A DNA stretch of 61,714 bases, filler included, from Hausera hauseri (lineage: Eukaryota), in assembly GCA_046269625.1 (NCBI GenBank). It is 11 parts of 11 records of this genome, joined end to end, with 100 filler letters (N's around TTAATTAATTAA, not from the genome) between each part and the next. Parts side by side here need not be neighbours in the genome. Positions count along the whole stretch, not along the records: positions 33,677 to 40,544 come from JBJURY010056885.1; 10 more parts are not named here. One strand, given 5' to 3'. The translations under genes and the position numbers were made by a program. Positions 761-61,500 of this stretch are shown here, in pieces. Position 1 is the stretch's first letter. The number at the start of each line of letters is the position of its first letter. The notes under the pieces are model-generated. The model had not been told where the DNA came from and did no database searches. It saw only the letters and a list, made by a program, of their open reading frames with translations.

Positions 761-789
761 CAGATCTTCATGATAGAAGAATTGTATGC

Positions 790-3619: not shown

Positions 3620-3631
3620 AAAAAATGGGGA
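3620..3631 (+). promoter_or_regulatory. Polypurine tract
   Basis: aaaaaatgggga immediately before the 3' LTR. Confidence 0.75.
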
Positions 3632-3945: not shown

Positions 3946-3950
3946 GAAGT
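3946..3950 (+). repeat. Target-site duplication GAAGT (partner at 6226-6230)
   Basis: The same 5 bp follow the 3' LTR and precede the 5' LTR. Confidence 0.85.
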
Positions 3951-6230: not shown

Positions 6231-6537
6231 TGTGAAGATATAACCGAGAACTGAAATTCTGAATTTAAATTAAAAGCAAATTTAAATAAAAAACTAACCA
6301 CGAATTTAATTTAAAAATGTAATATTAAAAATTTGTTTTGAATTAAGAATTTCAGGAAATTTGTTTCGAAATCAATATTCTAAGATATTAAGGTTTCCGA
6401 CAACTGGTGTTCACTTTTCAATGAGAAATTACAAAAGGTCATATTCCGCTTTAGCGGACATACCAGGGGGCGGGGATTTTTCAATCTAAACCAAGCTGGC
6501 GACGAGATGGGCGGCGTGGTCGTGCCCGCAGCTAACA
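6231..6537 (+). mobile_element. 5' LTR (307 bp, TGT...ACA)
   Basis: Direct repeat of 3632-3945; preceded by GAAGT; followed by TGG PBS and the gag ATG at 6555. Confidence 0.92.
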
Positions 6538-23682: not shown

Positions 23683-25262
23683 AAATTTACCAGGTCAAAC
23701 CCATGGTGCCCTATTTCCACTTCAGACACAAAATACAACTGCAAAGTTTTAGGTTTCTACCTCATCATTTAGAGGTCGCTCCAGTTTGTACCTTTTTGCA
23801 CCATGAATATTTCATTTTGATGATTCACATTTATTTTGACTAATACAACAGATATAATTATCGACATTATAGTGTAGTAATAACATATGTATTAGAAACA
23901 ACAGCGTTTAGTATCCCACATAAATGATATTCGGTGAAAGCGTCCTTTGAACCGCAAGTAATGTCCTTCTGATGTTGTCGCACAACAGTCAGAATATACT
24001 GCTTCTGTTTCTCGTACTGTGGTAAGATCGAGTTCAATTATGTTCCGAGAGAGATTGCTTTTTTGGCACAATCATTGATGACTGTCATCCTATCACAGAA
24101 TGTCTTGAACCGTATGTAGGTAGGGTCTTCATTCCAGTCTTCAGGTTTCTTGTGCAAAAACGATCAGCCAGCACTACACCATCTGGGAAAAGCGGTGCAA
24201 AAATTCTCATGGTCTTTGATGTTACAAATTCATTTGGTGACCGCCGAGAACAAAAATTCTTTCCATCGAGTCTCTTAATACCTTTTTTCTTTGGAGGTTT
24301 CTGCAGGTTCTGTACCATGGCATTTTTCAATGTGACATCGATCCTTTCATCGAAAAAAGCTAAACCGACTAACTCCTCTGACATGTACCACAGGTGCCGC
24401 TTCCAAGCTGTTAATGTTGTCTCTTTAAGGCTTCGCTCCGATAAACCGTTCTGAAGACGGCACATAAAGAAGCATATTTAACTATCATAGCTTCATTCCA
24501 CTACCTAACATAGACGAGAGCCACAAACAGGCCGCCACTGCGCATTGTATGCTTCTCTATGACAGTCATTTGAAACTGATCCTTGAAGAGATATATCTTT
24601 AGAGCATAGATTGCTTTGGTCATCCATATGGCTTGATGGAACTCATTAGGCGTTCGGGTCATGACAGAACCATCTGAAACTTCTGCCAATGATAGGAAAG
24701 CTAGTTGAAGTTCGGTGTGATCTTTTCTGGGATGGGGTTTCTGTTGCAACGCGGACTTCAGATAGTTGACTGCTGATGTATTCATCTCTGCTAGGTCACC
24801 ATTTTCCAAGAATCGTTGCGCAAGATCTTCATCCTCAGTGACGCCAGACCATTGGGATTTGTCATTTAGTTTTTAGCTCTCGTGAAAGCGAACAGTGAGC
24901 TGAACATTTGATCCTGTACATGTACCATAAGCCTCAGCGAAAGCGTTACTCAAGGCGATTTCATAAACATGATACTATAAATAGACTGGGTGTGAGTGGC
25001 TAATGTTTGCTGCAGCAGCAGCAGCAGTGAGCAATGTAGTGACGCGTGCTTGGTGGCCTGCATAGTGCAACAGTACAATAGGACACATTACATGTTATTT
25101 CAGTACGACTTGCAATTGTTTACAAAGGCTGAAATTTGGAGCGACCTCTAAATATTATCCAATGGTCTTCAAATTTTTAGTGTTTGCTTACTTTGTTAAT
25201 TGTAATAAGGGCATCATGTGTCTAATTCAGTGAAATTTTATTAGTAACTGTGGACCACCCTA
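23683..25262 (-). mobile_element. hATm-like DNA transposon, internally deleted, probably inside a SELENOO intron
   Basis: Transposase motifs HQAIWMTKAIYALK, HLWYMSEELVGLAFFD, NDCAK; imperfect ~100-bp TIRs with core tttagaggtcgctcca (23768 and 25137); right end ...GGACCACCCTA. Confidence 0.75.
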
Positions 25263-27843: not shown

Positions 27844-27943
27844 NNNNNNNNNNNNNNNNNNNNNNNNNNNNNNNNNNNNNNNNNNNNTTAATTAATTAAN
27901 NNNNNNNNNNNNNNNNNNNNNNNNNNNNNNNNNNNNNNNNNNN
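27844..27943. other. Artificial contig linker
   Basis: 44N-TTAATTAATTAA-44N. Confidence 0.99.
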
Positions 27944-28495
27944 AGCCTTCGATCGTTTTCTAATGGTATCAGCGTTATAATTTCAATACAACTTCTCCCA
28001 CTCTTGAATCCCATTGACCTCACAATCAGCTGGTTGAGTATTATTTAATCTAATAACGTCTCATTCATTTGTTGTCTAGTAGGGATCACTATTGATCTAT
28101 AAAATTTGGTTTTCTGGCATTTGTAATAATCTCCTTGTCTCTTTATGAGTGTAAGGTATATGTAATGGACACCTGAACCTTGTACCCTACACTGTGCTTG
28201 ATTGGTATCTGAGTGAAACAAGCAGTTATATTGTCACTCGTTGGGTTCTTTTTTATTATCATACCACGGTATTATTTGTATCCCCATTATATATGGTGGG
28301 GGCATCCGTTCCGACATGCTCCAGTTCATCACTTTCTGACCTTTTTCTGAGTATGTTGGAGATTTTTCATTAACGGGTCTTCTGTTATGGTCATTGCGTG
28401 TCGTATTTTTGCTCTTTCGATCTCTTGCTTCTCCATTTGTCCAATTACTCTAGGGAGTCAAAAGATGATGCTTAATAATAGGCACTGCATTAACC
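27944..28495 (-). pseudogene. Signal-peptide-led ectodomain after integrase, homologous to the C7 FN3-like protein
   Basis: WLMQCLLLSIIF*LPRVIG, then WSMSERMPPPYIMGIQIIPWYDNKK..YNCLFHSDTNQAQC..HYIY, aligning with WIKDWRPHPDFGRFQIVLYDVATKK..NCDFEPGDDTQFC..HVYI. Confidence 0.6.
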
Positions 28496-31400
28496 AATGA
28501 GATCTGTTGGTTGGATCTACCTTGTTTACTTTTTCATTTATACTTAGTAATACTTCTTTTTCACCTTTTCTTAACTCAGTTTGCTTGGCTGCCGGCTTAC
28601 ATCTATTAACGTAAACCTTCAGGGATTTATCATTTTTCTTTAGACAAATATTTGGTAGATCCACTTTTTCTACTTTGTAAGTCCCTTTATATGGCCTGTC
28701 TAACTTAGATGTTTTGCCCTTTTTAATTGCCGGTGAGTACAACATTACTAGGTCACCTATTTTAATTTTTGGCTGTTTAGTTTTTTGGTCGTAGTATCTT
28801 TTATATTTCAGTTCGTAGTCTTTCTGGTTATCACCAATTGTTTTATATGCCAACTAGAGGCGTTCCTGCATTAACTGTTTATAATCTTTTACCTCCATTA
28901 TGTGTCAAACTGGCTTCACATTAAAATCTAGATCAATTGGTAATCATGCATCCCGTAAATACATTAAATAGAAGGGTGTCTCCTTGGTAACCTCATGGAC
29001 CGATGTCCGATTTACGAAAACACATGCATTTATATATCCGTCCCAATCGTCTTGTCTAGTGTTTACTACCGTTTGTAATTTCCCTTTTAAATCTCAAATA
29101 TATCTCTCGACCATTTAATTATTTTCTGGGTGCCCCTGCGTGGATCGTAGTTGTAATATCTTCAAAATATCATATACGGACTACATTACCGTTCCCGTTA
29201 AATTTGACGCTTGATCCGTCAAGAGGATTCTCGGGGCTCCATAATTAAATACTATATTTTCCACAAATTTTTTGGCGATTGTGTCGGCCACGACTCATCT
29301 AGTAAAGCAGTCAATAAAGACTAGGATGTATCGGTTTACATTGCAGGTTAATGGTAGTGGCCCCGTTATGTCCATTGCAGTAAACTCAAATGGTGCTGGG
29401 GGTTATCCCATACTTTGAGAGGTGCTTTGTATTTCGTTCCCGTGTTCTTCCGGGTAGCACATCATTTGCAGCTATCGCACCATTCCTGCACATCTCTCGT
29501 TATGCTTGGCCAAAAGTATTTCCGTTTTAACTTATTAAACGTTTTATTTGCTGATTGGTGTCTACCAAATAATCCGTCATGGTACCAGACCAGGTCCGTT
29601 TTGATGAACGAAGTATAAGAATCCTTCTTTTTCTTCATACGTTTCACTGAATCGGGCCAAATGACGAGCTAGCTCCTTATCAGCTGGTACAGCTTTGTCC
29701 TTTGTGTATTTTCTAATAGTGCTTATTTCAACATCCTCGTTTTGGTTTGCCTTAATTTTCTCTACAGATCCATCCATGCTCCATATGGCTGCAACTACTG
29801 CTTTTTCTGTATTTGATTTACTAGGTATTCTGGATAGGTAATTCGCATTGGCGTTTCGTGATCCTGGTTTATATTGGAAATTCAATGTATAGGGCTGTAG
29901 CTTTAGAGCCCATCGTAGTAGTCTACTGTTGGGATTTTCATGCTGTTTTAACCATTGAAGCGGTCTATGATCTGTATAGATTACCACAGGTTTATTTTCA
30001 CTAATGTAGGGCGAGAATACCTCCAAGGCAAATATTACGGCCAATAATTCTTTTTTAATTACTGCGTACTTCTTCTGATGCTTATTGAGTTTTCGAAAAG
30101 CGTAAGCTACTGGGTGCTCCTTACCATCTTCACCCTTTTGTGACAACACTGCTCCTATTCCATAATAGCTTGCGTCTGTTGCCAAAATGAATGGATTGGT
30201 CATATCAGGATAGATTAGAATAGGGGCAGTTAACAATCTGTTCTTCAAATATTCGAAAGCTTTTTGACATTCGTTTGTCCAAATGACTTTGCCTAGATTT
30301 TCCCGTAATAGTTCGTACAAAGGTTTTGCGATCTTACTAAAATCCTTTATAAATCTGCGGTAATAATTTGCTAGACCTAGAAATTGGCGTAGTTCTTTGA
30401 CTGTACCTGGCTTTGGAAAGTCTCTTATTTTTCCTAAAAGTTTATCTTGAGGTTTTACGCCATATCTATCTACTCGATGTCCTAGGAAATCTACTTCCGC
30501 TTGGGCAAACGAACATTTCTTTGGGTTTATCTTTAGACCTATTACTTCGCATCTATCAGAGGTCTTGCAGATCCCTTAGATGTTGTTGAAAATTTGATTA
30601 TGCTATTAATACATCATCAATATATGCCATGGCATGTGGTGCATCTAGCAGCAGAAGTTCTGTTCCTCTCTGAAACGATGGCGGACCGTTTTTAATCCAA
30701 ATGGCATCCTATTAAATTCCCATAAACCTTCTCCAATTGAGAAGGCTGTCTTTGGTTTATCCTCTTTTACCTCCACTTGCCAATAACCTTTTTGTAGGTC
30801 TATCTTTGAAAATATTTTCGATCCATGTAATTTATCTAATATCTCATCAATCCTTGGTAACGGATATGTATCCGTTTCTGTTATTTCGTTTAAAGCTCTA
30901 TAATCTATACAAAATCCCATGGTCCAATCTTTCTTCTTGACCATTACTACTGGAGCCGTCCATGGTGAACAACTTGGCCGAATTATCTTATTTTCCTTCA
31001 GTTCTTTTATTATTTTTCGTGCTTGTTTTTTATCGTATGCCAATCGATACGGTCTTTTCTTGATTGGTTTGTTTTGTCCATCATTTAACTTGATGGTATG
31101 TTGTATTATCATCATTATACCCAAGTCATAATCATTTAGTGCAAATCGACTGTTATTCTTTTCCAGCAATTCGATTAGTACCTTCTTTTCCTCCGTTAAA
31201 ATTTTACACTTTTGTAGCTTCTCATCCCAATTGATACTTGTAATTTTATTTCTTTTTTTATCTTCATTTAGTTCCTTCTTTAATTTCCTTAACATTAATT
31301 TTTCTATTTTATCTACGTCCGAAATTGTGGAACATACCTCTTGTCTTATTACTTCCTTACTAGTCGTTACTTCTCCCAATCTCATTCTTTCGTAATGTTT

Positions 31401-31990
31401 TTTCTTTACTTGCCGTATTACGAATCCGCAAATGGATCTTTCCATCCCTTACTTTATCTATGTGAGGGGCGATTAAAATATCATACTTCTCCATCACTTG
31501 TGGGAATGGTTCAAAGTAAATGACCTTCGATAATGCTTGACTTTCTATTTTTCCGGGTACTATTACCTCGGATCGCGGTGGAATTGTAATATCTTTCATT
31601 AATGAAACCACTCTTCTGTCTTCTCCGAAAGTCTTCAGTTGACATGTTCTCAAATTTATATAAACATTTTTTAATTGGTTCACTACATCACATCCAATTA
31701 AGATCTCGTTAGTCAGATTATCGGCTATCCTTATAGTGTGTTCTACAATCTGTTCACCAATCTTAATTTTGGCATCTAAGACCATCTTAATTTCTTCTGT
31801 ACCGAATGCTCTTACGTTCACTAAGGTAGTTATCGGTTTTCGTAATTTCCTCTTTAACTCTTTCGGCAATTGGCTCCTTTCCATTATCGTTGTTGTAGAT
31901 TTAGTGTCTAGTAAAGCCGTCATTGGGTATCCATTAATCTCTATCTCTATTTCTGGCCTTATAGATGATTGTTGTTCATTTTTATCATCA
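28496..31990 (-). pseudogene. pol: Ty3/Gypsy pol (PR-RT-RNaseH-IN), disrupted
   Basis: ALLDTKS protease, SPWTAPVVMV, FCIDYRALN, DLQKGYWQV, FNRMPFGL, YIDD, TDASYYGIGAVLSQ, YTDHRPL, MDITGPLP, IKIGDLVML..YKGTYKV. Confidence 0.93.
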
Positions 31991-33576
31991 GCTTTGCACG
32001 TAGACTCGTTTATTGGGCATTACATTTTCGTCAAGATTTCGTTGCATCTGTTGTATTTGATGCGGTGGGTATAATCCTGTATGCACTAAATATTGTGGAG
32101 CGGAGGGGTTCATTAATGGTTGTTCGTTATACAACTGTCCATGGTATTCATCTGCTGGATCTAGGTGAGGTAAGTCAGTTATTAACTTGTGTCTATACTT
32201 TGGCTTTCGTGTCTTAAGCACTAGTTGTTTAATACCAGTTACTCGACTGTATTTTGTTTTTGGATTTACTTGATTATATTTAGTATCATTATCATCAGGT
32301 ATACTATACGGGGATTCTTTTATGTCTTTGCTTTGTAATATTTTCCTCTTCCATCGTGCATCATGATTTGCTAGAAAACAACTTGCTACTGCTGGTATCA
32401 CAGCTATTAGGATTTTCCATGAGCACCCTACTGCTGCATGTATTCCATATGCCTTACCTAGTGCCGTAAATACTGTCCGTATGGCGTTGATAATGAAATA
32501 TAGCTAGAAAACCGGAAGCTGCTTGGCCGAAATATAAAATCTTTTCCATAACGTTCTTCGTTACTTTCTTCAAATAGTCCTTACCCATTAAGTTTATCCA
32601 TTGTGGTGATACTTCACCATTCCACATTACTCTCCTAGTTAATTCTGTTATAACTCTGTCTTTGGGGAAACAACAACATCCGTCGATAATCCTCTAGATT
32701 TTGTTGCGTATAGATTTCTCCCTGAGATATTCCTGTTAATGTTTCGAATTTTTGATTCCTCTGCAAATTGATCAAACTTAATGTCTCCGGTTTGGGCACT
32801 GGCTGTCTCTTTGGCATTCTAATCCATTTGCCATTATCGGTTTTAAACATTGGTGACATATTAAATGTATAATTGTATAGAGGAGTAGGTTTCACGTTAA
32901 TATCTAATAGTATTCTGGTTACTGGAATCATATTTCTTGCTTCTGTATAGTAAATTACCGGTAATTCCATGGTACATTCGTCCGTTGGCCTAATTGACAC
33001 TTCTACCTTCTTGCATTCTATCGTTATTAATATCTCGCCCATCACTCTTCCGATAATTCCGTCACCGAAGGGTATCACTGGCGCTACCATGTCTCGATTT
33101 GTTATTACCAGTGCCATTTTATTACGCATTATTCCGTAGTTCAACTTACATTGGTTCATTACAATTTCTCTATACAGACTTATAATCTCTTTCCTTACAT
33201 AGTTAATCAGAAAATCGATCTTATTGTCGAAATATTGTGTTAGCTTGATATCTTTCTTATCTATCTTAGTTTTCGCCCGGGGTATTTCTTTTCTTGATAA
33301 GAAAATACCCTTATAATTAGTTTTTGATATTTCTTTGCTACACTTATTTGTTACTCCAGTGATTTTAAATCTCATCATTTCTTCTGGATTTTCCGAATAT
33401 ACAGTTGTAGCTACTTCAGTCTACTTGACTTCCTTTCTTCCTTCTTTGTATGTCGCTGTTTCTTTTTCGGCCGTTTTTCCTACTGTTTTTTTTTCCTACC
33501 GTTTTTCCTTCTTTTAACAGTGTCAACTGACATTTGCTTGCCGATGTTTCCCATGTAATCTTCGACTCTCCAGTAT
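31988..33576 (-). pseudogene. env: Envelope glycoprotein of chuvirus-G / herpes gB-like (class III) type, C-terminal part
   Basis: YFDNKIDF..LYREIVMNQCKL, GEILITIECKKVEV, CTMELPV, PVTRIL, EIYTQQNLEDYRRMLLFP; membrane region FGQAASGFLAIF..YGIHAAVGCSWKILIA; two frameshifts. Confidence 0.8.
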
Positions 33577-33676
33577 NNNNNNNNNNNNNNNNNNNNNNNN
33601 NNNNNNNNNNNNNNNNNNNNTTAATTAATTAANNNNNNNNNNNNNNNNNNNNNNNNNNNNNNNNNNNNNNNNNNNN
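33577..33676. other. Artificial contig linker
   Basis: 44N-TTAATTAATTAA-44N. Confidence 0.99.
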
Positions 33677-33762
33677 GTATGGCACCTTGAGGTGCGTTCT
33701 CTTGATTTTATTCATAAAACATTTTACCCTATTGAGGAGATTGGCTGTGAATCTGGAAGAAC

Positions 33763-34437
33763 TCAACACACTGGGTATGTGGTTTTCCCATTGTCCAGCG
33801 TCCATTTCTCTAGACAATCCCGGCAATATTTGTGTCTACAATCTGGATTATCCAATACTACATATTTTTGTTTGAAGTCCGCTTCACATACTGGACATTC
33901 GTTTTCTTCTTTCTCCCATTTTTCGTCATCCAGGTCAACTTGTATTGTAAGTTCGATGTGCCCGAACACGTGGCCATCTTCGTCTTTATACATATATCCG
34001 TATATCATCTATTTAGTGTTTATGGAACTTTTCTTAGGGTCGCAACCCACGGGTACTAAGGTCCAATCGCTGATAGTGTCTCGATCTAAGTCGGGAATCT
34101 GAGCAGCTGATTGATATTTGTGGTATTGCCTTTTCAAGAGTGTCTTCACAAATTTATCTACGGGTACTATTAGTCCACCGTTCCCTTTCGATTGGAAAAT
34201 CGACGCAATGTATTTTCCTATCTTGGGATTTTCCCAAATATAAGTATTTTCGTAAACTTCCCTCTCAGGTATTATCTTAACGAAAAACATAGCCTCTTTA
34301 ATCTTTTGTTGGCTATAATATTCTGTAGTTACCAACATTTTTGGGTAGTCGTCGGCTGTGGCGAAATGTACGTTATCATTGGGATTTTTCTTCCGTAAGA
34401 TGTTTATTTCAGTTATTTGTCCCTTCGGTTCATTCAC
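33763..34437 (-). pseudogene. C3HC4 RING-finger-containing accessory ORF of the C7 element
   Basis: CPVC..CRHKYCRDCLEKW..YPVC (one Cys lost); 34009-34437 and 33763-34008 are in the same frame, split by TAG. Confidence 0.8.
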
Positions 34438-34685
34438 TATGCTTCCGAATTCTCTGGTTTGGGTCGATGTTTGGTTATTGGAGGATATCGGTTTCTCTTC
34501 TCTGACTAGCAGTTCTTTGTTTGTCTTAAGCGTTGAATTCTCTTTCGCTTGTCTTAGATTCGCTTCTCGGTCTATTTTCCCGCTCTTATTCTTTTTCTTA
34601 AACAGGTAGGCAATAAGAGAGATTTTCCTCTTATTTGTATATTTCGTAGGTTCGATTCCGGTTTCCTTTGACCAACTTCCCTTTT

Positions 34686-36080
34686 TCAGATATTTTTCGG
34701 AATTTCTCGTATTCTGAAATTATTGTGCGAATCGGCGGTTTTTGTTGGCTTCTTATGACTATAACTCGTACTGGGCTTATTTTCCATTTTTGGTTTCTTA
34801 TTAAGGCTCTCCGATTTGAGTCCTTGTATGACTATTCGATAATTTAATTTTTCTGCGGTTTTGACATTTCTAGGAGGAGAGTAGGGACGAAAATGTCTTC
34901 TGTGTCGGGTACTTAATTCGTCTGGTTTAGTGGAATGACGTAAATTTTGGTTTGGGTTATCCGGAATCCATTCGTGTTCCCATCTTAATCCGGCACTTAT
35001 GTCTCGTAAATACTGGAAACGTTGACTAGCGGTTAATAATCGGCTTATTTTAATATGTTCTCCGCTCATCGATTCAATCATCAATTTAAGTCGGGCTTCT
35101 ACAGTCGGTGGTAGATACCCCTTCTTTTCCTTAAGGTTTTGTTCCATCCGTTCCATCACTATAGGCTGGGTTTCTATTTCTCTTACTCCGGCTACGTGCA
35201 TCATAGGTAGTCTCAGTTTTCCCATGATCATTTCTACTTGATAACCAACTACGATACATCCATAGAAGCAGTGTATCAATTCTCCTCGGGCTCATTCTAT
35301 GTCTTTTCCATGAATCAATTGTTCTTTTTTTACTCCGGTTACTTCTGCATAGGTTTTCCTCACCATTTTCCTCGGACTGATCGTTTTTGAGTAAATTTCA
35401 ATACCGTCAGCTTCTCCTATCGATACTTCGATAGGAATATAATTCCCATCGTCTCCTTCTCCATGGTTTAATGCTATGATTCTGAGATTTCTCGCACCTT
35501 GCACTAGCACGAAGGAATGTAAATGTTCATCTCGGTCTCTTTCTGTTGGCTCTTGGTTAAATTTTAGAGGAGGCAATTAAATATACGATGCTTCCTCATA
35601 GGTCACTTCGATCATCACTTTAAGTGGAAACGCAGCCACCCTAAATTCTAACTGGCATTTGTAATGGTAGAAATCTCCACTATTGAGTTTGAAGGTACTA
35701 TATCGGTTTTGTCTTCCTTGAGAGGAATCCCAGGCTTGATCTTTAAGCCGATAGTAAATTTCTTCATCTGCCAGATGGATAAATATATTCTGATGATAAA
35801 CAGGTTCATATTGAATCAGCTGTCGCAACGCGTAAGCTTTCGCGTCCTTGTCGTTCCTCATGGCATATAGACGGACTACTCTGTTCTCTTCGTTGATGCC
35901 TTTTAGATTGTTGGGAATTTCACTAGTTCTTTTATATTCTACTATAATTTTTCCTTGGAGTTCATTATTGATCTGCCTGAACATCGATTTGGATTGGGGA
36001 ATCAGTACGGTGACATACCGTTGTATAAAATCGTCGACGCTACGTCAATTATTACTTCCTCTGGTCGCCATTTGTATACT
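34686..36080 (-). pseudogene. Accessory ORF with degenerate DEDDh (REX4/ISG20-like) exonuclease domain(s)
   Basis: IIALNH..EVSIGEADGIEIYSKTISPRKMVRKTYAEVTGVKKEQL..GCIVVGY..LRL parallels VALDCE..RVSIV..G..Y..VKP..V..T.VSGI..L..G.ILVGH..L.L; three ORFs in one frame. Confidence 0.6.
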
Positions 36081-36185: not shown

Positions 36186-37600
36186 TCAGGTTATTTTATC
36201 ATAAAGATACTCTTGGGGTTCCAGTTTCCATAACTCCCATTCTGTAGTTTTAGAACGCTTAGAGTGACAATTTTTGGAAACTGATCGAAAAATTACAATT
36301 AATATAATGAGAACAAACGTTGATAGTACAACAATGGATACGATCGGTAAAGTGGTTAATCTCATTGGTGCTTGTGTGGTGACTGAAGTTGTGATTTCAT
36401 CGTCTATATTTTCATATACGTGCGATTCTGCACGAATTTCGTCTAAGGTACGCAATGTAATTGTTTGGTTTTGTTTATTCACTCCATATATTTGTACTAT
36501 ATAATAGGATTGTGGTTTTAGCAAATTGCATTCTGTGTGATAAGTGTTTTTAAGTAATGTTACAATTTGATTATTATACGTTGTTCGGCAGCTTATGTGT
36601 ATATCGTAATTTAGTTTTTCTTCTACAAAGAACACAATCTTAGATCGATGCGCCAAATATTTGATAGGTATAATTTCTAATTCTCCTTTAGGCACACTGC
36701 TTAATGTAACGAATCTCTCAGTGGTACTAACTCGAGTAGTCAGCTTCTCGATTGTCGTTTCTACTGGAATCCGCCATATTCTATTCTCCGGGTAATAGGT
36801 TCGCAAATGTTTGCTCGGTTTATTCGTTTGTACTTCATATAGGTCAAATTTTATTTTGAATTCTTGGTTTCCTGGTAGTTTGCAATATGGATGTTGCACA
36901 CCGGCATGAACAGAGCAGTATTTTATGTTCGGAGTTTTCCGTTTACTGCTACGAAAACGATGCTAATTTTCTGACTAAGAGTTAATCCTGTTCGAGCATC
37001 TACTTTGATGCATTGTTTCTCCTTATTTATTAAGACCTCTTTCATGTTTTCATCTAATAGCCTTATATTCGGGTCGGTAGATTGTAGCATTTCGTCGGGC
37101 TTCCTTCCGAATCTCCCGGGCCAATGGGGAATAACCAGCTGAAGTTGTGGGTTTACTTCGATATAGACTTCTGACGAGTCTGGTAAGTATAGTCGATAAG
37201 TAAGGATGTAAACATGTCTAAAATCTATGTCGCAGAACTGGGTATCATCTCCAGGTTCAAAATCACAATTTTCCGTCTTTTTTGTTGCTACATCATACAG
37301 GACAATTTGAAATCTTCCAAAATCGGGATGCGGTCTCCAATCTTTAATCCAACACATACAGAGTCTGGCGAAAAACAATGAATCGTCATTTATTTTAACA
37401 ATTTAGTGTCGTCTTGCTTTTGGATCTCTTCAGCCGTTGGTTTCTTTTCCGCTATGGTATTTTTCGCTTTTAGTCCGCTTTTCCGTATTCCGTATACGTC
37501 TCCTAGTGTAGATTTATCGTCCCACCACTGAGTTTGTGTTTCTGGAATGTAAGAAGCAATTAGTGATAGTGCTAAGACTATCTGAACGTATGATATCGGT
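36186..37600 (-). pseudogene. Type I membrane protein with FN3-like repeats, starting in frame with the integrase C-terminus
   Basis: Signal-like ISYVQIVLALSLIASYI; repeated C-x9/10-C units; FN3 motif NLLKPQSYYIVQIYGVN; Thr-rich stalk; TM IVSIVVLSTFVLIILIVIF; short cytoplasmic tail. Confidence 0.65.
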
Positions 37601-40544
37601 CTAGTAATTATTGAAGAAGTTTTTGTCTCGTGTTGGCGTAAATTGTAACGTTTATTGGGCCGCATCTCCGTCTTAACAACTCTTTGTACTAACACGACTT
37701 CTTCTTTTCTATTTTTGTTAATGTACACCGTAACTGGCGTAACTATGGTAACTTCATACGGTCCTCTACCTGTACGAGTCAGTTTTAATGGGGTGCATTT
37801 CTTGGCTACTGGATAATGTACATAAAGCCAATTTCCTTGTTCTAAATCATGCAGTTTCGCTTTTTTATCATACTGCTTTTTAAACTGTTCTTGATATCCT
37901 TGGGATAACTCCTTATCAATTTCGCAACGATTTTGTAGTCGCATTTGTAATACTTCTGCAAAGTTTTGTTCTAAATCTTCGGGATTGACAGTATATGGCG
38001 TCATTCCTAAGTCTGTGGATAACACAGCTTCACGTCCATACATCATGGAAAATGGCGTAAATCCTGTTGCCAGATGTGGGGTGGTATTAATCGCGAATTG
38101 AGTTCCTTCTAAAAATTTGTCTCAATCCTTTTGATCCTTAGCTACTACTGTTGATAGTATGCGTATGACAGTTGCATTCATTCGTTTAACCATTCCATTA
38201 CACTGAGGGTGATACGCGGTAGTAATTAACCGTTCGATTTCGAATGTCTTGGTAATCTTCTCGAAGAGTTCACTGGTGAAATTTCTTCCTCGGTTTGTTA
38301 ATATTTGGTTTGGTGGTCCATATCGGCAGATGATTCTTCTTACTACAGCTTCGGCCAAGGTTTCTGCCTTTTGATAAATTTGCGCTATCAACTCGACAAA
38401 ATAAGTCAATCGATCGATACAAGTCAAAAAATACTTATTGTTTTTATGAGTTGTAGGTAACGGTCCTACAATGTCCATTGACATGGCTTGCATAGGTCTG
38501 TCTGTTACGGCAATTGTTCTTAGCTCTGCCATGTAATTCTTTGTCTTTTTTGTTTAGTTGCACATACTTCACAAGCATTTACCCAATTCTTTACATCGAT
38601 ATAGATACTGGGCCAGAAGTATTTATTCAATATTCTTTCCAACGTCTTTTTCCATGATTGTGCCCGCTAAATAAAAATCATGTTCTGCCATTAAAACTTC
38701 GGTCCGTAAACCTTTAGGAATAACTATTAATTTTCTCCCTTTCCGTTCGTAATACAAAATGTCTTCACTACTCTTGTTATTCAAGATACAGTAGTTGTGC
38801 CCATGTCTGTGTAAGTGTTTCTTTAGTTGTCGTCCTGTCGGCATAATATTCTTTTTAGCAAATTCTATAATCTGATGGATAACTTTATCTTTTCTTTGTT
38901 CGACCGTGATTTTAATGGTTTGTCTGTTGTCAATGGACTTTGACGGTCTATTAATTCCTCAAGCTGAGCTTTCTTTATTACAGTGATTGCACTTGTCTTA
39001 GTTCTTAACCTGGATAGCGCGTTGGCATCAACATGTTTGTTTCCTGGCTTATAGCGAAATTCAATATTGTATCTAAAGATTTCTTCGATCCATCGGTTAA
39101 CCCTGCATGTCAGGTTATTTGCTTGACGTTTTAGAGTCGTGACGGCTTTGTGACCAGTGACAATTATAATTTTCTGCCCGTACACGTAAATGTTGAAGTG
39201 TCGAAGCGCTTCTTTTACGGCTAGAGTTTCTAATTCACTAACGGAAAAGTTTTTCTCGGCCTTTTTCAGAGAACGCCCTCCATAAGCAATTGGGTATTCT
39301 AATTCGTCGTCTTCTCTTTTCTGTGCTAATCCATATCCAATACCTTCCTGACTGGCATCTGTCTTAATTATAAAGGGCAATTAAAGTCTGGGTATCGTAA
39401 AACAGGTTCATTTGTTAATATCTTCTTCATTTCGGCAAACGCTTTCTGTTCGACATCTGTCCACTTCAATTTAATTCCTTTATTAAGCAAACAATATAAG
39501 GGTGCATTTATTTTCGAGTTGTCTAGCACATAAGTGGCATAATATCCACAGAGACCTAGCCAATTCCTTAACTCTTTCTGATTTTGTGGCTCCATGCAAT
39601 CTGATATTTTGTTCAATAGTGAATTATCTGGTCTTGATCCTCCTTCTCCAACTATATGGCCAAGGTAGGATACTGCATTTTTAGCTCATTTACATTTCTT
39701 TGGATTTAATTTTAATCCGGCTTGTTCTAGTCGCATTAATGTGTGCCCAATAACCTTCAGATGTTCCTCATCCGTTCTTGACGCTATAATTACATCATCT
39801 AAAGACGCAAAAGCATGATCTAGTACCATCAACATTATGTTCATCATTCTACTAAAAACAGCTGGTCCAGTGGTAATATCAAACGGCATTTACATTAAAT
39901 TCTTAGATACCATCGTGTGTTTTGAACGCTGTTTTATATCGGTTTTCATCTTCAATTTCTACTTGCCAATATCCGGACTGTAAATCCATTGTGGTAAACC
40001 GTTTTGCTCCTGAGAGCCTGTCTAGAGCCTCTTTTACTGATGGCAGTGGAAAAGAATCTTTCATTACGAGATTGTTTAATGCTTTGTAGTCAGTGCAGCA
40101 TCGATGTTTCGTAGTACCCTTCTTTTTGACCATAAGGATCGGTGAGTACCAAGATATATAACTGGGCCTAATTATATCGGCCTTAAGCATTCGCTCGACT
40201 TCCTTTGTTATCTCGGGCCTTAGTGAATGCGGCGGAGAATACCATTTCAACATCTTTTGGTCTTCAAGATCTATTTCTTCATTCGAACCAGGCTTTTTCT
40301 TAAGTGGAATAGTCAACTTGAATGCTTTTGCCCTGCCAATATTTTCGTCGTCCTTAGCAATAATCGACTTAGAGACATAATAATTCATAGAATTCACAAT
40401 AAGATTCGGGGGAAAACTTAGTTTCAACAAGCGGTGGTAATTCAGGATACTTCTAAGGTTTTTCTTTAATAGTTATAGCTGACACTCTATATGTATCTCC
40501 CAATGTTGTATAAGCATGAAGCTTCACGGGGGTCGGTGCACTAT
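37601..40544 (-). pseudogene. pol: Ty3/Gypsy pol (RT-RNaseH-IN), disrupted
   Basis: SPILMVKKK, DYKALN, DLQSGYWQV, SLDDVII, TDASQEGIG, ELETLAV, MDIVGPLP, TAYHPQCNGMVKR, GRGPYEV. Confidence 0.93.
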
Positions 40545-40644
40545 NNNNNNNNNNNNNNNNNNNNNNNNNNNNNNNNNNNNNNNNNNNNTTAATTAATTAA
40601 NNNNNNNNNNNNNNNNNNNNNNNNNNNNNNNNNNNNNNNNNNNN
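40545..40644. other. Artificial contig linker
   Basis: 44N-TTAATTAATTAA-44N. Confidence 0.99.
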
Positions 40645-41878: not shown

Positions 41879-44793
41879 AGTAGTATTATAAGGCAATCAG
41901 TGATTTGGCGCGGACAATTGGTTGCGCAATAGGTGGATTTAACAAAAAACTTCGATGGCGTAGCCAGTCGGGGTAAGGGGGAGATAACGTTTTTTGGAAA
42001 TGTTTTAAGGGGGAGACAAATATTGTATATTTTTGTTTTTAATTAGGTAATTAATTAGGTAATTATGTGTTTTAACTAAATAATGTGTGTAATTTTATTT
42101 AAATAATAGTTATGTATAATTATAGTTGATAAAGTTGTTTTCCGAGAGTGCTGGGGTCACCCTAGGTGCTGCGGTCGGCCGCGTCGTCTGGGCGTTCGCC
42201 GGTAATTAAGTAATTGTTTTTAATTAGGTAACTAGGTAATTATAGTATAATTATGGTATAATTATGTTTTGTAATCCTTGATAAGAGCGGGGCAGACATA
42301 CTGTCAGGGTAAGGGGAGTGACAAAGTCTGACTCAGCGGGTTTTTTATTTTTTCATCATCATCATTCTTTTTTATTTTTCATCATCATCATTCTTTTTGG
42401 TAACGTAATTTCTTTTTCTTTAGTTAGACGTGAGACGCATTATGGGGTAATGACGTGTTATGTCTTTGTAGTAAGTTAGGTACTAGATGCTGTATATACC
42501 AGCATTCTGTTTGATGACGTCAGCATCTTGATGTCGTAATTTCTTTTTTTTCTTTAGTTACGTGCAGTAAGGGGTGAAGGGGCTGTGGTGGTAATGTGTC
42601 TTTGTCTCGGGACTAATAGTGTTAGGTCTATGTAGCGTCAGGTGCTGTGTCGTATATGGGTAGTGGGTCAAAGAAGGGTCATATTTTGATGTTAATGTCG
42701 CGGTTCTCAAGGGCGATGATGGAGATTTAAGTCGTCTTCTTCGTGTTTAGGCCATGTCGATCATTAAAGGGGTACATTTTTTCTGTTAAGGGCGTGTTTC
42801 TCAAGTGTGCTGGTAGTGATTTAGGTCGTCTTCATCGTGTTTAGGACAGGTCGGAGCATTAAAGGGGCACATTTTTTCTGTTAAGGTCGGGTATCTCAAG
42901 GATGCGGGCGGTGGTTTAGGTCGGATTCTTCGTGTTTAGGGCCATAGAAGGGTGATATTTTCTGTTAAGGGCGTGTTTCTCAAGGGTGTGGGCGGTGGTT
43001 TAGGTCGGCTTCATCGTGTTTAGGGACATGGAAGGGTCATATTTTCTGTTAATGTCACGGTTCTCACAGGCGATGATGGAGATTTAAGTCGTCTTTTTCG
43101 TGTTTAGGGCCATGTCGATCATTAAAGGGAAACTTTTTTCTGTTAAGGGCGTGTTTCTCAAGGGTGCGGGCGTGGTTTAAGTCGTCTTCTTCGTGTTTAG
43201 GGACATGTAAGTGGGGTATTTTCTGTTAAGGTCACGTTTCTCAAGTGTGATGGTGCTTTAGGTCGGTTTCTTCGTGTTTAGGGATAAGTCGGAACATTAA
43301 AGGAAAACTTTTTTCCTGCTAAGGTCCTGTTTCTCAAGGATGCGGGCGATGGTTTAAGTCGTCTTCATCAAATGTTTAACACACAAATTTAGACGGTTAG
43401 ACGAATGGCTTTATTCACGTTGGTCGTACAGGTGTGTTTTGCTTGAGCGATAGCAAAACAATGGATGGCTTTACCCCTTTGTACGAGGACGAACACTGGA
43501 ATGTTCCACTCGTTGCCGGATAAGTTTGGTAAGAATAATATTTCTGTGTTTTGTTTCGTCTTTCTAAGGAGCGGGCCGATAAATTATTCGTACAGTGAAA
43601 ATTGTTGTTTGAATGTTGGTAGATTTTCACAGTTTTACTTAGGAAAGATAACAACGGTCGGTTCGTCTTTATTAAGGGCGACCGGATAAAAGAAATGTGA
43701 AAATTGTTATTGGAATGTTGGGATGTTGGTAGATTTCAAAGTTTTACTTCAGAAAAATACAACGTTAAGATACCCGTTAGAACTAAAAAATTGTGTGCAG
43801 ATTGACTGGAAGATCAGCCAAATATCAACTGTTTGAAGATGGCCGACTTGACAAAACTGTAAGTAACAAAAATTTCTCATGTTGTAAGTAACAAAAAATG
43901 TAAATTTCTCAGGACACTACACATATTGTATAGTTTGTACTTTCTCGAATGACTAAAACATGTAGTATTTGCCTTATGTTAATAAAATGAACTTACCAGT
44001 GTTATAATAATAAAATGTGTGTGATAAACGTTACAAGATTCAGCCGCCATTTTTGCTTCCACAAAACTCTGTCCTCTGACTTTACCTTCTGCTGTCACAT
44101 GACCCCGCTTCCTGTTCTGCCCGTTCCGCTTGACTTTGTCCTTGCGGCCGCTTCCTACGCCTGACTTCACCCATCTTTCGTGTACACACATACGGCACTC
44201 TGCGCCTCCTGTACTAGCCTGCAACGTCACCTGACTCTGCCCCCTACGCCTTCACCCGCCATCTTGCCTTTGCCGACCCTCGACGCCTGCGACGACTAAC
44301 TCTGCCCCCTTGCGCCTCCACATGACGACACCTGTCTCCCCCTACATCCGCCATCTTCCACTGTCTTTGTCCTCGCCTATCCCCGCCTCTCGACAAGTGT
44401 GTGACATTCCCCCGACCTCTAAATAATTTGCTATATTTCTTATACATTACAACCTCTGCAAAGGAACATGATGATGAAAAACACTAAGTGGGCCGAAACA
44501 AGGTAGACATTAGGAAAACTATATTGGAGTATAGAGCCCCACAAGGAGAGAGGACACCGAGCCCTGTCACTCCTAACTGGTCATAAAAAGAATGATGATG
44601 ACGAAAAACCTGCTACTGGAAGGTCTTGGTCACTAAAAAAACAATAACGCCTTATAAAATGACACTACTACACACGTCCCTCGCTCCATCACCCCAACTA
44701 ACTAGCCATCAAAAGAATGATAATTAAGATCTATAAACATTGTGCTATTTGTTCCAGGCGCAGAACGACTTTTCGCTCATCTTATAACATGGT
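41879..44793. mobile_element. Non-coding element bounded by long degenerate inverted repeats (possible non-autonomous Polinton-like or foldback element)
   Basis: Inverted similarity between 41879-41990 and 44675-44793, and between 42316-42372 and 44585-44640; left end AGTAGT; internal tandem array. Confidence 0.4.
42681..43380 (+). repeat. Minisatellite, about 8 units of about 83-96 bp
   Basis: Core ttttctgttaagg..ttctcaag..ggtttaggtcg..cttcgtgtttagg repeated; long and short variants. Confidence 0.9.
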
Positions 44794-47465: not shown

Positions 47466-49383
47466 ATGTTCTTGTGCCACCAGATTTCCAAGTGTCTGAT
47501 ATCGGTTCGTATAGTGAAGATGAAGAAAACATTATTAGAAATAATGATGATGTTTCCTCAGATAAAACAGAGGCTTATTCCATTCATGAGGACTCAACAC
47601 CATCAGATGATGACTCGTCCAGTAGATAAAGCACTTACAGGTGGACAAAGGGTAGGTTTCGATCAAGCCAAACAGTGCACGATGATGTCACTTTCTGCAA
47701 GCAGATAAACTATCATCAAAGTCAGACTACTTTCTGAAATTATTTACACGACAGCTGATTACAGAAACTACTGAGCATACAAATTTTTATTCAATTCAAG
47801 TATCACAAAGTTGCATAAATGTGTCAGATGCAGAAATAAGTGTTTGTGGATATACAGTTGATGATGGGGAATGTTGCCGTGCCATCTGTGACAGACTATT
47901 GGAACACATTGTCGGTATGATAACATCAAGGATTCTATGTCACTAAAACGTTTTCACAAGACAAAGAGGTACATCCACATTAGGGGCAATACTGGCTCAT
48001 CTGATGATGCACTTCTAAAAATGCTCACTGTGCTTGAAAGCATCAGAGCTCAGTACAATATCATTGAAAATGAAACCAGTATGTCAGATGATGAAATGAT
48101 GATACCATACAAAGGACAAAAAGCTGTTGCTTTGCGGCAGAATATTCCTAGCAAACCCGTGAAGTGGGGTTTTAAAATATTTGTACGTTCTGGTGCTTCA
48201 GGGAATGTGTATGATATGTTGGTGTATACTGGAACAACAACATTTAATGGTATTCAGTTCGGCCCAGCAGCAACCAATCTCGGAGTGGGTGTTTTTGGGC
48301 AACTTTTTCTGCTCATTTGACCTTACTCGTCATCTAAAGTAAGCAGTACACATTGACAATTTGGGTACCTTGCGCAGTATTAGCATTCGCAACTGTCCAA
48401 TTGAAGATGAAAAAACACTACAGAAGCGTGGACGAGGAATTTTTGATTGTGCTGTGGATATACGATGGGTTGACGATAAAACTGTAACTCTTGCCAGCTC
48501 ATTTGTTGCAGTGGAACCTGTTGGGATAATGAAACGTTACAGTAAGGAAACCAAAATCAAAGCAGATGTACCATGTCCGGCGACTGTAACTCAATATATC
48601 AAACAAATGGATGGAGTCGATTTGTCGGATATGCTTATTGCACTATATCGAACTCCAATAAAGTCAAAAAGGTGGTATCTTGGGATTTTTGCTCAGTTGT
48701 TGGACATTAGTGTAGTCAATGCCTGGCTACTGTACAAATGAGATTATGCTGGCTTATTTGAAAACGAAGAAGCTACCAGCAACATCCCTCGTATGTTGTC
48801 TTTGAAGGACTTTAGGTTACAAATTTCATCTACCTTCATTAATGCAACTAAAGTTGATCAGCGTGGACAAAATAGTTTCGCAACTACGCATGTTCCAAAA
48901 GAGACGATTTTCAAAGCAGCCAACACCAGTGGGAGATGATGCAAGATTTGATGGTGTGGTCATGACATTGTAAAGACTGTGAAGGGTAGATGCCGAAATT
49001 GTACGAAAGGACAAACCAGGATGAAGTGCTCGAAATGTGGGGTACGGTTGTGCGTTGCACAGAGCTGTAATTGCTTTGTTGATTACCACTATAAAAAGTG
49101 ATCGACAAGTAGTATGCGACCGCTGTGAATGTGTCTGTATATCGTACAATAGTGGACTAGTTGTGTGGTATTTGTGTTACACGATGACTATTTTGAAATT
49201 TATGATTACTGCGTTGCTATTATTCGTAATTTAGGCAATGTATCCAAATGGATGCTCGCTGTAAAATCCATGTTCTTGTGATACAAAAGAATTGAATCAG
49301 AGATATTTTTATTTTAATATGTTCAAAACAAAAATGTGTTAAAAATGTTCGTGCATATGTAAGTCTCTTTGCCACGTTAAGGG
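47466..49383 (+). mobile_element. piggyBac (PGBD3-like) transposon, disrupted
   Basis: DEMMIPYKG, KPVKWGFKIF, GTLR, WVDDK, MDGVDLSD, NAWLLY, RFDGVGH plus C-terminal Cys cluster; right end AAGGG followed by TTAA at 49384-49387. Confidence 0.9.
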
Positions 49384-58539: not shown

Positions 58540-61500
58540 TCCAAAGTTATTGGACTTGAAAACCCTTTAATATGAAAATAAATGTTGGCTATGAAAGATT
58601 TATATATGCGCAAACAGTGGTCGCACTGGTGAGTGAAAATCAGCAAAAAGAATTTCACCAACCTGTTTCCGAATGTGATGTTGCCGTTATCTCGCGGTAT
58701 CTCCAATGAATCGTCAATGTGGCCTGGTCTAGACAATTCGTAATTGACGAGTCTTGATTGGACGGACAAATACACGCTCGGAGAATGCCACCAGATACTG
58801 TTGGAATACTCTAACAAACTTGTTCAAAACGGAATCCGACGCTATGGACAGGTATTTTAACGCAATTGTATAAAATGTCCGCTGAACGAATAATATCGAC
58901 TTATTCGGCAGCAGTTGAGTTCCGTCGGCGTAGTGCTGTTTCTCTAACGCAAGAGTCATACAAAATCGGAACATACCGAATGTAACTTGCAAAATCGCCG
59001 TCGGCAATTTGTTCAAGATTGTGCACAATTGATAACAGTTTATTCGTTATTCCATCGTGAAGCATTCAGGAACAAAAATATAAAAAGAGGATCGTTTGTC
59101 AGACTGTCGATGTGGGTTAGGACAGCGTTTTCTAGAACGGACAAAGGAGATTTGTTGACAATCGACGAATACGTCTGTGAAATAACAGATCGAAATTCAT
59201 GGTGTTTAAAATGGTCGAGTATGTCAAATGAAATTTGAAAAGGTTCTGTTGATTGTCTCAATATCCGCAGATCCAATTGTTGAACATAACAGCAACGTTA
59301 TTACGATTTGATTGAATCCATTCGAATGATGATAAATTGACAATAATTCATCGAGTAGTGTTCGTTTCAATCTACAATAATAACAATAATGAAAAAGGGT
59401 AACAGAAATTCGAATATTTAGCACACACACACACACACATACAGCCAAGCCAACTCTGTACCTAATTCCACAAGTTTTATCCAATTTACATATTGCAATG
59501 CAAACATTTTCAATAACTTCTCTGTCCAATTCAATCAAATTGCCAATTATTCGATGGAAAAAATCGGAAAATCCATCAAAATCACCATGGGAATATTTAT
59601 CAACGATATCAATCAATACCGATGATGCAATTTTGTTAACGTCACTATTCAACAAATGCTTATCAATTATGGCGAGGACATTACGAATATTCGATTGAGG
59701 AAAACAACTCAATAATTTGATGGAGATTTGCTGCAGAACGAATGGGATATTCGAGTCATTACAATTGGTGAATAGAAATCCAAATAAGTCATTTCGTGAA
59801 CACAATTCATCACTAGACCGAAATAAAGATGGGGCGAATTCGAACAATGCCAATTCGAGTTCGGTAATTGATTCCGTAATTAATTTGTCGATAGTAAGTT
59901 TGATAATCGTTATTCGAAATTCAATGACGGCATTGACATCGGTAACGTAATTAACAGTCGTATTACATTCCGGTGGGCAAATATCAAATAACGTATACTC
60001 CATCAATAAACGGAATAACACAACCAAATAGGCGATTTCGTCATTCGATTTGACAACATTTACGATTTTGTTTTTGAATAAAAAGAAAATTTTGATAAAG
60101 AAACATCGAATATCGTTGTTATCCATAATACCTATCACCGAATAACAAATAATAAACAACGGAATCACAAAAATACCAACCCTTGTATTTCGAATGGTTT
60201 GAATTCGCGTTTAGAATTCTCGCTACCGTTTGCAAACGTTCGATATCCTAACAACGAAATTCGTATAACAGAAAAGACAATCGCCAATGAAAATACTCGC
60301 AATTCATCTTTCTGACAAAATCCGATAATTATCGGCATTAAACTCGCACAAACCGCACACCAAATTGGTGACGTATTCTCAATAGAACGCAACAGAAAAT
60401 CGACAGCTTTCGATTCGGTACCGGCTGCAACGGGAATGAATCCTAATCATAGAATTGTATCATTCATCACAACGACAACAACAACAAAACAAACATACGG
60501 TCACATAACGATTTTGCAAAATCCAACAATTGAATTTCATTGGCCTGAAAATAACACATCGAACTGCGATTCAAATTTTCCAAATAAAAATGAACATTTC
60601 TCACTTTTTCCTCAAAACATTTGGACATTTCATCCAAACAACGTTCAACGAGACGATCGGTTTGGCGATCATTATTTCTAAACAAATTGTACAGACAATC
60701 CAAAATCGACATGTAATAGGCGAACAAATCGCCGAAGTTCATTTTCCAAATACCATCCGCCAGAATATCCAACGAATCCAATTGGGCGGAAACAACATCG
60801 CTGCTGAACTTTTCAATGAGCATCGGAAACAATTGAGTTCCGTAAAATAGCGATGCAATAATGCTCAATTTGTTGGCTTCGATCAGTGTCTCCTTGGTGA
60901 ATGTTTCGTGAATCGATGGTTTAAATTGAACGGAAAAGTGAGCTGTGATGGTATGAAAGAAATCTTCATAGCAACGACTCAAATCCAAATTTTCTGCAAT
61001 GACCTTATTTAATCTCATAACCAATAAAACAGTTTGGGGAATTTTCACCATCGATAGCAATATGATAATTTTCAATAAAATGAATTCCGAGACTCATTTT
61101 AACCGGGGAAAAATTTGAAAACGTCAGCGTTCAATAAAATTAGTGCGTCAATAATTCTCAGAGCATGGCTAACGGTAAAATTAATTTTATCCATCAATGC
61201 TGTGATTCCATTTAATATACCGGGTAAAAGCTTATAATGAACAGTAAGTATACTTTCATAAAGTATGTTGCTGAAGCATTTTCGTTCTTCTTTAAGGAGA
61301 TCGGGTTAGAAAAAATTTGTTGCAAACTGAGCGGCATGAGAAACGAATTGTTTTAGCAATTGAGCATCGCCAAGAAGCCATTCGGATAAATGGGGTTTCA
61401 ATGAAATAACGAGAACAACGGCCAATTGAACTTTAAGAATGTTTTCACTCATTTTTTGAAAAATCCCATTTATCCAAAATATCATAAAGTAACTCAATAA

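Follow-up and report, generated by a model that had tools for sequence, protein, structure and literature searches.

What does a Ty3/gypsy retrotransposon carry behind its integrase when the integrase frame continues into a signal-peptide-like segment, and is the gene that begins there an envelope (env)? The question arises in a window of 61,714 nucleotides from Hausera hauseri (assembly GCA_046269625.1), the whole stretch analysed here, which consists of 11 contigs joined with artificial spacers. The locus lies on contig C7 (33677–40544) and is compared with contig C6 (27944–33576). The C7 element is a decayed Ty3/gypsy copy, and its first cargo gene after the integrase encodes a surface protein of the fibronectin type III (FN3) kind. 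In its unbroken form, this gene very probably encodes a type I membrane protein of ~480 amino acids, comprising a signal segment, a charged helix at the N-terminus, three FN3-like domains, linkers rich in Thr, one transmembrane helix and a tail of ~30 residues ending in Y-x-x-I-T. The ten linkers between contigs are identical and 100 bases long (for example, 27844–27943 and 40545–40644), and repeats spanning them are artefacts. Treating C6 and C7 as one locus was ruled out, as an artificial spacer separates the two contigs, which need not be neighbours.

The gene behind the integrase

The cargo gene lies in three pieces, A, B and C, which are listed here with the pol domains of C7 and the adjoining spacer. 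P0002 is a database relative described below.

39903–40472, minus strand: reverse transcriptase (RT), N-terminal piece (PF00078, E 2.7e-9)
38865–39380, minus strand: RNase H of pol (PF17917, E 1e-26)
38122–38700, minus strand: integrase core (PF00665, E 2.4e-11)
37756–37764, minus strand: GPY motif in the C-terminal module of the Ty3/gypsy integrase (motif scan)
37390–38121, minus strand: piece A, an open frame with the integrase C-terminus, the signal segment and the first ~45 cargo residues
37528–37590, minus strand: signal-peptide-like segment (hydropathy; conserved at the P0002 N-terminus)
36923–37402, minus strand: piece B, with FN3-like domain 1 (about 37354–37135), a linker and the start of domain 2 (P0002 alignment; model strands)
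36186–36962, minus strand: piece C, with the rest of domain 2 (to about 36773), a Thr-rich linker, domain 3 (about 36662–36450), stalk, transmembrane helix and tail
36720–36758, minus strand: Thr-rich linker between domains 2 and 3 (sequence; unstructured in the model)
36477–36521, minus strand: FN3 L-x-P-x-x-x-Y motif of domain 3 (motif scan)
36372–36395, minus strand: Thr-rich juxtamembrane stalk (sequence)
36288–36344, minus strand: the one transmembrane helix, with a conserved Cys and a basic patch after it (19-residue hydropathy 3.3; alignment)
36192–36203, minus strand: C-terminal Y-x-x-I (YDKI), one residue before the end, kept in 3/3 proteins that have the tail
33577–33676, no strand: spacer between C6 and C7 (44 N, 12 nucleotides, 44 N)

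A HMMER search with piece C against 1.84 billion representative proteins returned two matches, both nameless singleton clusters from ENA assemblies: P0001 (189 amino acids, 48% identity to piece C, E 2e-36) and P0002 (479 amino acids, unbroken, 35% identity, E 1e-34). P0002 aligns with the end of piece A (residues 10–65 against 37608–37435; 55% identity over 58 residues), with piece B (residues 89–227; 28%) and with piece C (34% in the pairwise alignment), and in each comparison 0/3000 shuffles score as high. A, B and C are therefore one gene, as the unbroken P0002 matches the three in collinear order. P0002 is also continuous across both frame changes (one in the interval 37435–37351, the other near 36959–36935), which represent decay of a single gene of ~480 codons; programmed or intronic frame changes were ruled out on the same grounds. 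The C7 copy itself is dead, since its integrase core has four in-frame stops (at 38625, 38571, 38556 and 38124) and since the FN3 gene is split over two further frames after piece A. Across 35–48% identity the cysteines, the transmembrane helix, the juxtamembrane Cys and the E-P-x-E-x-x-Y-x-x-I-T tail are kept, and the tail of 3/3 proteins has the juxtamembrane Cys, the basic patch and this motif. The juxtamembrane Cys may be a lipidation site and the tail Tyr part of a sorting or phosphorylation motif.

An earlier note on this DNA had read the integrase C-terminus as running in frame into a signal-like segment and then through Cys-paired repeats, an FN3 motif, a Thr-rich stalk, a transmembrane helix and a Tyr-containing tail. 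The first part holds: the frame of piece A is open over 38121–37393 (stop-free between 38124 and 37392), contains the GPY motif and enters the hydrophobic segment at 37590–37528, which has an 11-residue Kyte-Doolittle peak of 2.55. Only this segment and about 45 residues beyond it are in frame with the integrase, and the later features lie in two other frames. Those features were nevertheless recovered, namely two homologous domains for the Cys-paired repeats (P0002 domain 1 against domain 2: score 71, shuffle mean 25.8, 0/3000 as high), the LxPxxxYxVxIxxxN motif at 36521–36477, Thr-rich stretches at 36758–36720 and 36395–36372, the membrane helix at 36344–36288 and YDKI at 36203–36192. The GPY motif has been named a gypsy hallmark (PMC12440569, from the portion available). 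The order RT-RNase H-integrase is seen in C7, and C6 has protease, RT, RNase H and integrase, which is the order of Metaviridae. The C7 contig ends at 40544 inside RT, placing gag, protease and any upstream env off the contig.

Translation of the gene could begin in either of two ways, as a fusion to Pol or by separate initiation. The only in-frame ATG between the C7 integrase core and the signal segment (37665–37663) overlaps a position read as another letter by 4149/4170 depth units in a public run (X1). P0002 has a Met shortly before the signal segment and its first residues are unlike an integrase end, so in its own locus the gene may start independently. In C6 the integrase frame also enters a hydrophobic segment led by a Met, the same junction as in C7. 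Published precedents, in the portions of the papers available, exist both for a Pol-fused glycoprotein (the single Gag-Pol-Env polyprotein of Atlas virus; PMC9094657) and for separate expression (the internal env promoter of Tor elements; PMC4402516). No repeat pair that could represent LTRs (long terminal repeats) was found within C6 or C7, both of which are cut inside the element, and purine runs of 13–19 nucleotides are present, none of them tied to an LTR.

Run X1 contains C7 with a share of words of 0.66. It yields 12,440 contigs on C7, 10,229 of which are <95% alike, with transitions dominant. Contigs identical to the stretch have depths of 6.5–12, and the summed depth over the FN3 gene is 638–4064 per bin (36196–37569), although X1 depth is no copy number. 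Among seven listed variant sites in the gene, six are seen in 24–80 contigs and the seventh in 4. The FN3 gene is plainly common to many diverged copies and, because these contigs cover it and it adjoins the integrase in frame, it is an element-borne gene. Summed depth falls to 15–272 over 34135–35966 and is 740–1128 over the last two bins, which hold a RING finger. High depth just after the FN3 stop was considered as the mark of an LTR and rejected, given an ATG-led open reading frame (ORF) from 36071 and no second copy found.

No cellular donor gene is detectable among the 1.84 billion representatives, where P0001 and P0002 are the only matches, or among PDB sequences, where P0002 has none. 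Word-based searches for longer proteins confirmed 0/884 candidates for piece C and 0/1208 for piece A, and a search with P0002 near its own length found itself alone among 3340; the searches with pieces A and C missed P0002 though it was in their length range, so they have little bearing on Pol-fused forms. Scans of viral contigs (0/2 and 0/134 pattern matches confirmed) and of JGI metagenomes (0/93 and 0/158) were likewise negative, PHROGs gave 0 families for 5 proteins, and NCBIfam gave sub-threshold matches only.

Fold and class of the encoded protein

An AlphaFold2 model of P0002, built on a 4-row alignment, is of low-to-medium confidence (mean pLDDT (local distance difference test, predicted) 55.8, predicted template modelling score (pTM) 0.27). 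It has a signal helix, a long charged helix, disordered Thr-rich linkers, a transmembrane helix and three seven-stranded domains (residues 87–161, 191–282 and 328–398) arranged as beads on a string. Domain 3 is the more distant, with 58 and 1833 of 3000 shuffles reaching the scores in its two comparisons. An L-x-x-[PG]-x-x-Y motif is present in 3/3 domains. Foldseek finds 283 PDB matches at E up to 0.001 (best E 4e-9), and among the matches listed 43/43 are fibronectin or FN3-array receptors by title or by what the proteins are known to be, at 7–14% identity and low whole-chain TM-scores. VIA-align places fibronectin repeats 4–7 at Z 9.3 (root-mean-square deviation (rmsd) 11.9, 142 aligned), a designed immunoglobulin (Ig) domain at Z 9.1, an FN3 domain at Z 8.4 (rmsd 2.6, 75 aligned) and domain D2 of IFNAR2 at Z 8.3. 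No Pfam fn3 match lies above the cut-off, the best being PF00041 at E 0.12 (P0001) and PF10179, an FN3 domain, at E 0.042 (piece C). In the ESM Atlas, FN3 membrane proteins stand at or near the top rank (0.85–0.90), with recognition below threshold, which makes this result a lead only.

The earlier note favoured a captured cell-surface receptor over a fusogen, and the two halves of that view part company here. Pieces A, B and C, P0001 and P0002 have no gB- or F-type fusogen match in a Pfam scan that detects the env of C6; the furin site R-x-[KR]-R is absent in 4/4 sequences scanned; and each sequence has one 19-residue hydropathy peak and no second one that could be a fusion peptide. Together with three beta-sandwiches matching FN3 arrays, these results argue that the protein is not a fusogen, and the Foldseek comparison, proposed as a check for a known env class, returned fibronectin and FN3-array receptors among its listed PDB matches. 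Fusogen folds are absent from the PDB matches listed by Foldseek or VIA-align, although a family outside these lists may still match. Of the 50 BFVD matches listed, most are FN3/Ig proteins or nameless, and two weak ones carry names of viral envelope glycoproteins (at ranks 25 and 43, with E 3.5e-5 and 7.1e-5). Capture of a receptor, on the other hand, is not borne out, with no donor detectable and 7–14% identity to FN3 structures. Class I cytokine receptors are characterized by WSxWS in the membrane-proximal domain and a Pro-rich Box1 in the tail. WSxWS is absent in 4/4 sequences scanned and a Box1-like motif is absent from the short tail, the three tails holding a single Pro.

Element C6, downstream genes and other parts of the window

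C6 provides the closest comparison within the window, and its features are as follows.

31988–33420, minus strand: gB/chuvirus-type envelope gene in two frames (33420–32635 and 32503–31988; PF24664, E 3.7e-36 and 6.8e-4)
28458–32019, minus strand: pol with protease, RT, RNase H and integrase (Pfam; stop at 28460)
27946–28449, minus strand: probable remote homolog, covering domain 1 and the beginning of domain 2 (interrupted by stops at 28236 and 28047; truncated by the contig end)

The protease ORF begins (32019) within the last env ORF, which runs to 31988; the overlap leaves no room for an LTR or gag, so env lies directly upstream of pol. C6 and C7 are mutual best matches for RT (50%) and RNase H (42–46%) among the contigs of the window, identities that are insufficient to prove a single clade. 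The earlier note had also claimed that the N-terminal part of the cargo protein aligns with 27944–28495. A direct alignment of C6 with C7 piece B does not sustain this (score 22, shuffle mean 27.8, 9740/10000 shuffles as high; 620/5000 with BLOSUM45). Through P0002 or profiles, the C6 piece is collinear over about 160 residues and the similarity is moderately supported (P about 0.0002–0.04 over all tests, where several scoring schemes were tried and the best value overstates the case): 40/3000, 9/3000, 13/3000, 130/20000 and 1/5000 shuffles score as high, as do 0, 1 and 0 of 1194 decoy windows of real sequence. The corresponding hhalign result is weak (P = 0.041, probability 1.3%), as is a profile search of the whole stretch (E 3.3, two chance matches ranked higher). 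On these comparisons the C6 piece is probably homologous to the FN3 protein; if so, C6 has a fusogen and, separately, an FN3-type protein.

Downstream of the FN3 gene, C7 has two further cargo ORFs.

34686–36071, minus strand: ORF D, led by an ATG and interrupted by in-frame stops at 36047, 35579 and 35294; degenerate DEDDh-like exonuclease domain at about 35489–34998
33741–34719, minus strand: ORF E, with stops at 34011 and 33765; RING finger from 33897 (PF13639, E 6.6e-7, above the curated cut-off)

ORF D starts 115 bases beyond the FN3 gene stop and has no Pfam match. Its central domain has three matches among PDB sequences, 3/3 of them DEDDh exonucleases (PolC exonuclease, ISG20L2 and ISG20) at a weak E of 0.057–0.36, and for the whole ORF 2/3 matches are DEDDh exonucleases. 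The canonical Asp of the first catalytic motif is missing by eye, and a single-sequence model has a pLDDT of 33, with uninformative fold searches. ORFs D and E may lie inside or outside the element and, with low cover over 34135–35966, may not travel with the FN3 gene.

The remaining contigs of the window hold other mobile elements and host gene pieces. C10 (49978–56669, plus strand) has fragments matching TPR repeats, which we take to be kinesin-light-chain-like, gypsy integrase, gamma-glutamyltranspeptidase, Laminin G, presumably neurexin-like, and Polo box; several adjoin in one reading direction, and C10 is possibly a gene-capturing transposon or a retrocopy mosaic. The Laminin G and other gene fragments, together with the kinds of transposon present, point to an animal host. 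C1 (1–7091) has the same 77 bases at both ends, as in a collapsed or circular assembly path, and contains a gypsy element and a 314-base repeat pair (3632–3945 and 6231–6537; 85%). A second gypsy group is found in C2, C3, C4, C10 and C11 (13800–22700, 50555–51385, 8294–8920 and 57139–57972), with C3/C4 and C4/C10 about 70% alike at the DNA level. Putative decayed DNA-transposase-like ORFs are found at 47892–48741 (plus strand), presumably piggyBac-like, and at 24085–24872 (minus strand). C8 has a degenerate tandem array of 84–95-base units (42665–43370), and highly diverged pieces of an MMS19-like host gene are present at 59224–61093 (minus strand; PF14500, E 5e-14).

Possible roles of the FN3 protein and its relation to known elements

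We tentatively read the FN3 protein as an accessory surface glycoprotein that would act in attachment or adhesion beside a gB-type Env, a reading that falls a little short of an even chance. Attachment is favoured because FN3 arrays on Thr-rich stalks are binding modules, because the tail is too short to hold an enzyme and because the probable C6 homolog coexists with gB. The protein would enter the secretory pathway after initiation at the 3' end of pol, at a start of its own or a subgenomic one, or, alternatively, by signal-peptidase cleavage of a Pol fusion. It could then be displayed on producer cells and particles, be sorted or recycled via the tail tyrosine, and bind a surface partner on neighbouring or germline cells, with membrane fusion left to a gB-type Env whose gene lies upstream of pol, as in C6. 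Such a division of labour is modelled on herpesviruses, which pair gB with separate glycoproteins. Herpes simplex virus needs gD, gH and gL besides gB, and the entry of gB-carrying errantiviruses is unexplained (Chary and Hayashi, PMC13524379, in the portion available). The wider proposal, a gB-type errantivirus lineage with two-glycoprotein entry in which gB is encoded upstream of pol and an FN3 attachment protein after the integrase, followed by exonuclease-like and RING accessory genes, is speculative and rather unlikely.

Several observations weigh against the attachment reading. The model rests on 4 alignment rows, with the low pLDDT and pTM given above, and generic Ig-like sandwiches tie with FN3 in VIA-align. 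N-glycosylation sequons are fewer in the C7 pieces (piece B 0, piece C 1) than in P0002 (4). The link to gB depends on C6, whose probable homolog is remote and truncated, fails in the direct comparison with C7 and is weak in hhalign, and the place of any gB-type env in C7 is off the contig. P0001 and P0002, which were seen as protein sequences, may or may not be element-borne. X1, which supplies the many diverged copies, may be the stretch's own source. Surface display, tail-driven sorting and partner binding are what we infer from sequence, and the DEDDh-like and RING neighbours are no less compatible with host modulation than with attachment.

Host modulation is accordingly the first alternative: the ectodomain would trap a host ligand, or the tail Tyr would recruit an SH2 protein or adaptor, as a decoy or signalling mimic within an anti-defence cassette with ORFs D and E, unrelated to entry. 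Cytokine-receptor ectodomains do occur among the fold matches (gp130, IFNAR and IL-20R/IL-22R), P0002 domain 1 has a C-x-W motif, acidic residues precede the tail tyrosine in 3/3 proteins, and the RING and DEDDh-like ORFs lie directly downstream. We nevertheless consider it unlikely, since WSxWS is absent, cytokine receptors are not ranked above fibronectin or contactins, a host homolog is not detectable, the exonuclease assignment of ORF D, whose first catalytic motif looks degenerate, is weak, and cover over ORFs D and E (15–272 at 34135–35966) is far lower than over the FN3 gene (638–4064 at 36196–37569).

If the C7 lineage lacked gB, the FN3 protein could instead stand in for env and build cell contacts for direct capsid passage, like the Env-independent route of Drosophila MDG1. 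The gene does lie behind the integrase, where env is canonically placed (PMC7879559), spread is possible for env-less elements that have a transmembrane accessory protein (PMC11952523, in the portion available), and there is no env on the C7 contig. That contig, however, simply ends inside RT, the probable C6 homolog coexists with a gB-type env, and sORF2, being short and having fusogen hallmarks, differs from the 480-residue FN3 array, making this substitution quite unlikely.

The gene could also be a passenger, a host FN3 gene fragment that was transduced and is copied along without benefit, and here the earlier note's argument that retention implies function is at stake. The C7 gene is broken at two frame changes, the C6 piece has stops, and C10 in the same assembly is a mosaic of host gene fragments. 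Yet breaks are equally frequent in the pol of the C7 copy, a host source gene is not detectable, and the 479-residue relative is unbroken at 28–55% identity with every topological element kept, which is unexpected under neutral drift; a passenger is therefore improbable. The argument from retention thus stands for the family, given the unbroken relative and the cysteines, transmembrane helix and tail kept at 35–48% identity, but not for the broken C7 copy. A new kind of fusogen, or a degenerate class II fusogen with Ig-like domains mimicking FN3, is highly improbable, because the 2/50 listed BFVD matches that suggest it have a TM-score of 0.13 and stand amid phage FN3/Ig proteins, and because there is no second hydrophobic peak, furin site or fusogen Pfam match and the model domains are beads on a string.

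The nearest published relatives set the attachment reading in context; each is cited here from the portion of the paper available. A GAG-ENV-POL layout with a gB-type env has been published for Nematoda, Bryozoa and Platyhelminthes, and env genes of the gB type are as abundant as those of the F type in envelope-carrying Ty3/gypsy elements (PMC13524379). C6 shares with these errantiviruses an env of the gB type (PF24664 in C6) placed directly upstream of protease-RT-RNase H-integrase, whereas in C7 and probably in C6 a second membrane protein follows the integrase, and any env of C7 would be off the contig. The available text of that paper does not mention fibronectin, FN3, exonuclease, RING, immunoglobulin or accessory ORFs. 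Its coordinates place the 3' LTR at least 1 kb beyond the last ORF in 11/13 bryozoan and nematode gB-type elements versus 6/18 annelid F-type elements, but long gaps are also present in these F-type controls and the count only marks where to look. For this count, regions were taken to reach 3000 bases past the ORFs, as the paper defines them; rows lacking LTRs were excluded, as were two truncated by contig ends, the nematode rows covered were 11 of 36, and 19 of 45 annelid rows were left out.

The bdelloid elements Vesta, Juno and TelKA (PMC5408684) are Ty3/gypsy-like and carry, behind pol, cargo other than env, among it DEDD exonucleases and small transmembrane proteins. Their cargo differs, consisting of GDSL, DEDDy, F-type env or transmembrane ORFs of 210–230 amino acids, with dUTPase in all three and no FN3 array or RING described, whereas the C7 exonuclease is DEDDh-like and up to three cargo ORFs stand in a row. 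Tor elements of Oikopleura (PMC4402516) also have a post-pol transmembrane glycoprotein, with an internal promoter possible in or after pol, but Tor Env is cleaved by furin and contains a putative fusion tripeptide, and the FN3 protein has no furin site. Atlas virus (PMC9094657) likewise has a membrane glycoprotein in frame behind pol; it belongs to Belpaoviridae and has a class II phlebovirus-like fusogen, in contrast to the Ty3/gypsy element with FN3 domains in C7. Cellular FN3 type I proteins (FNDC5/FNDC9, class I/II cytokine receptors, contactin and RPTP arrays) share topology and fold with the C7 protein, which differs in its 7–14% identity, its lack of a Pfam fn3 match above the cut-off and of WSxWS, a tail that is very short and its location in a retrotransposon. 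No description of an FN3 ORF in an LTR retrotransposon was found in the open-access literature searched; PMC2717909 was considered as an FN3-cargo paper and rejected because, in its available portion, fibronectin is a tissue stain.

The cargo gene of this Ty3/gypsy family is real and apparently undescribed, although non-env cargo itself is already known (PMC5408684, in the portion available). A signal-plus-transmembrane ORF after the integrase need not be an env. Even if its role differs from attachment, an FN3-array protein followed by nuclease-like and RING genes would be a type of cargo not found described for LTR retrotransposons in the open-access literature searched. Where an element encodes an FN3 protein as well as a gB env, the former is a concrete candidate entry partner and makes the question of entry testable. 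Two-glycoprotein entry, if true, would supply a receptor-binding partner for gB-only retrotransposons and would suggest why env moved before pol.

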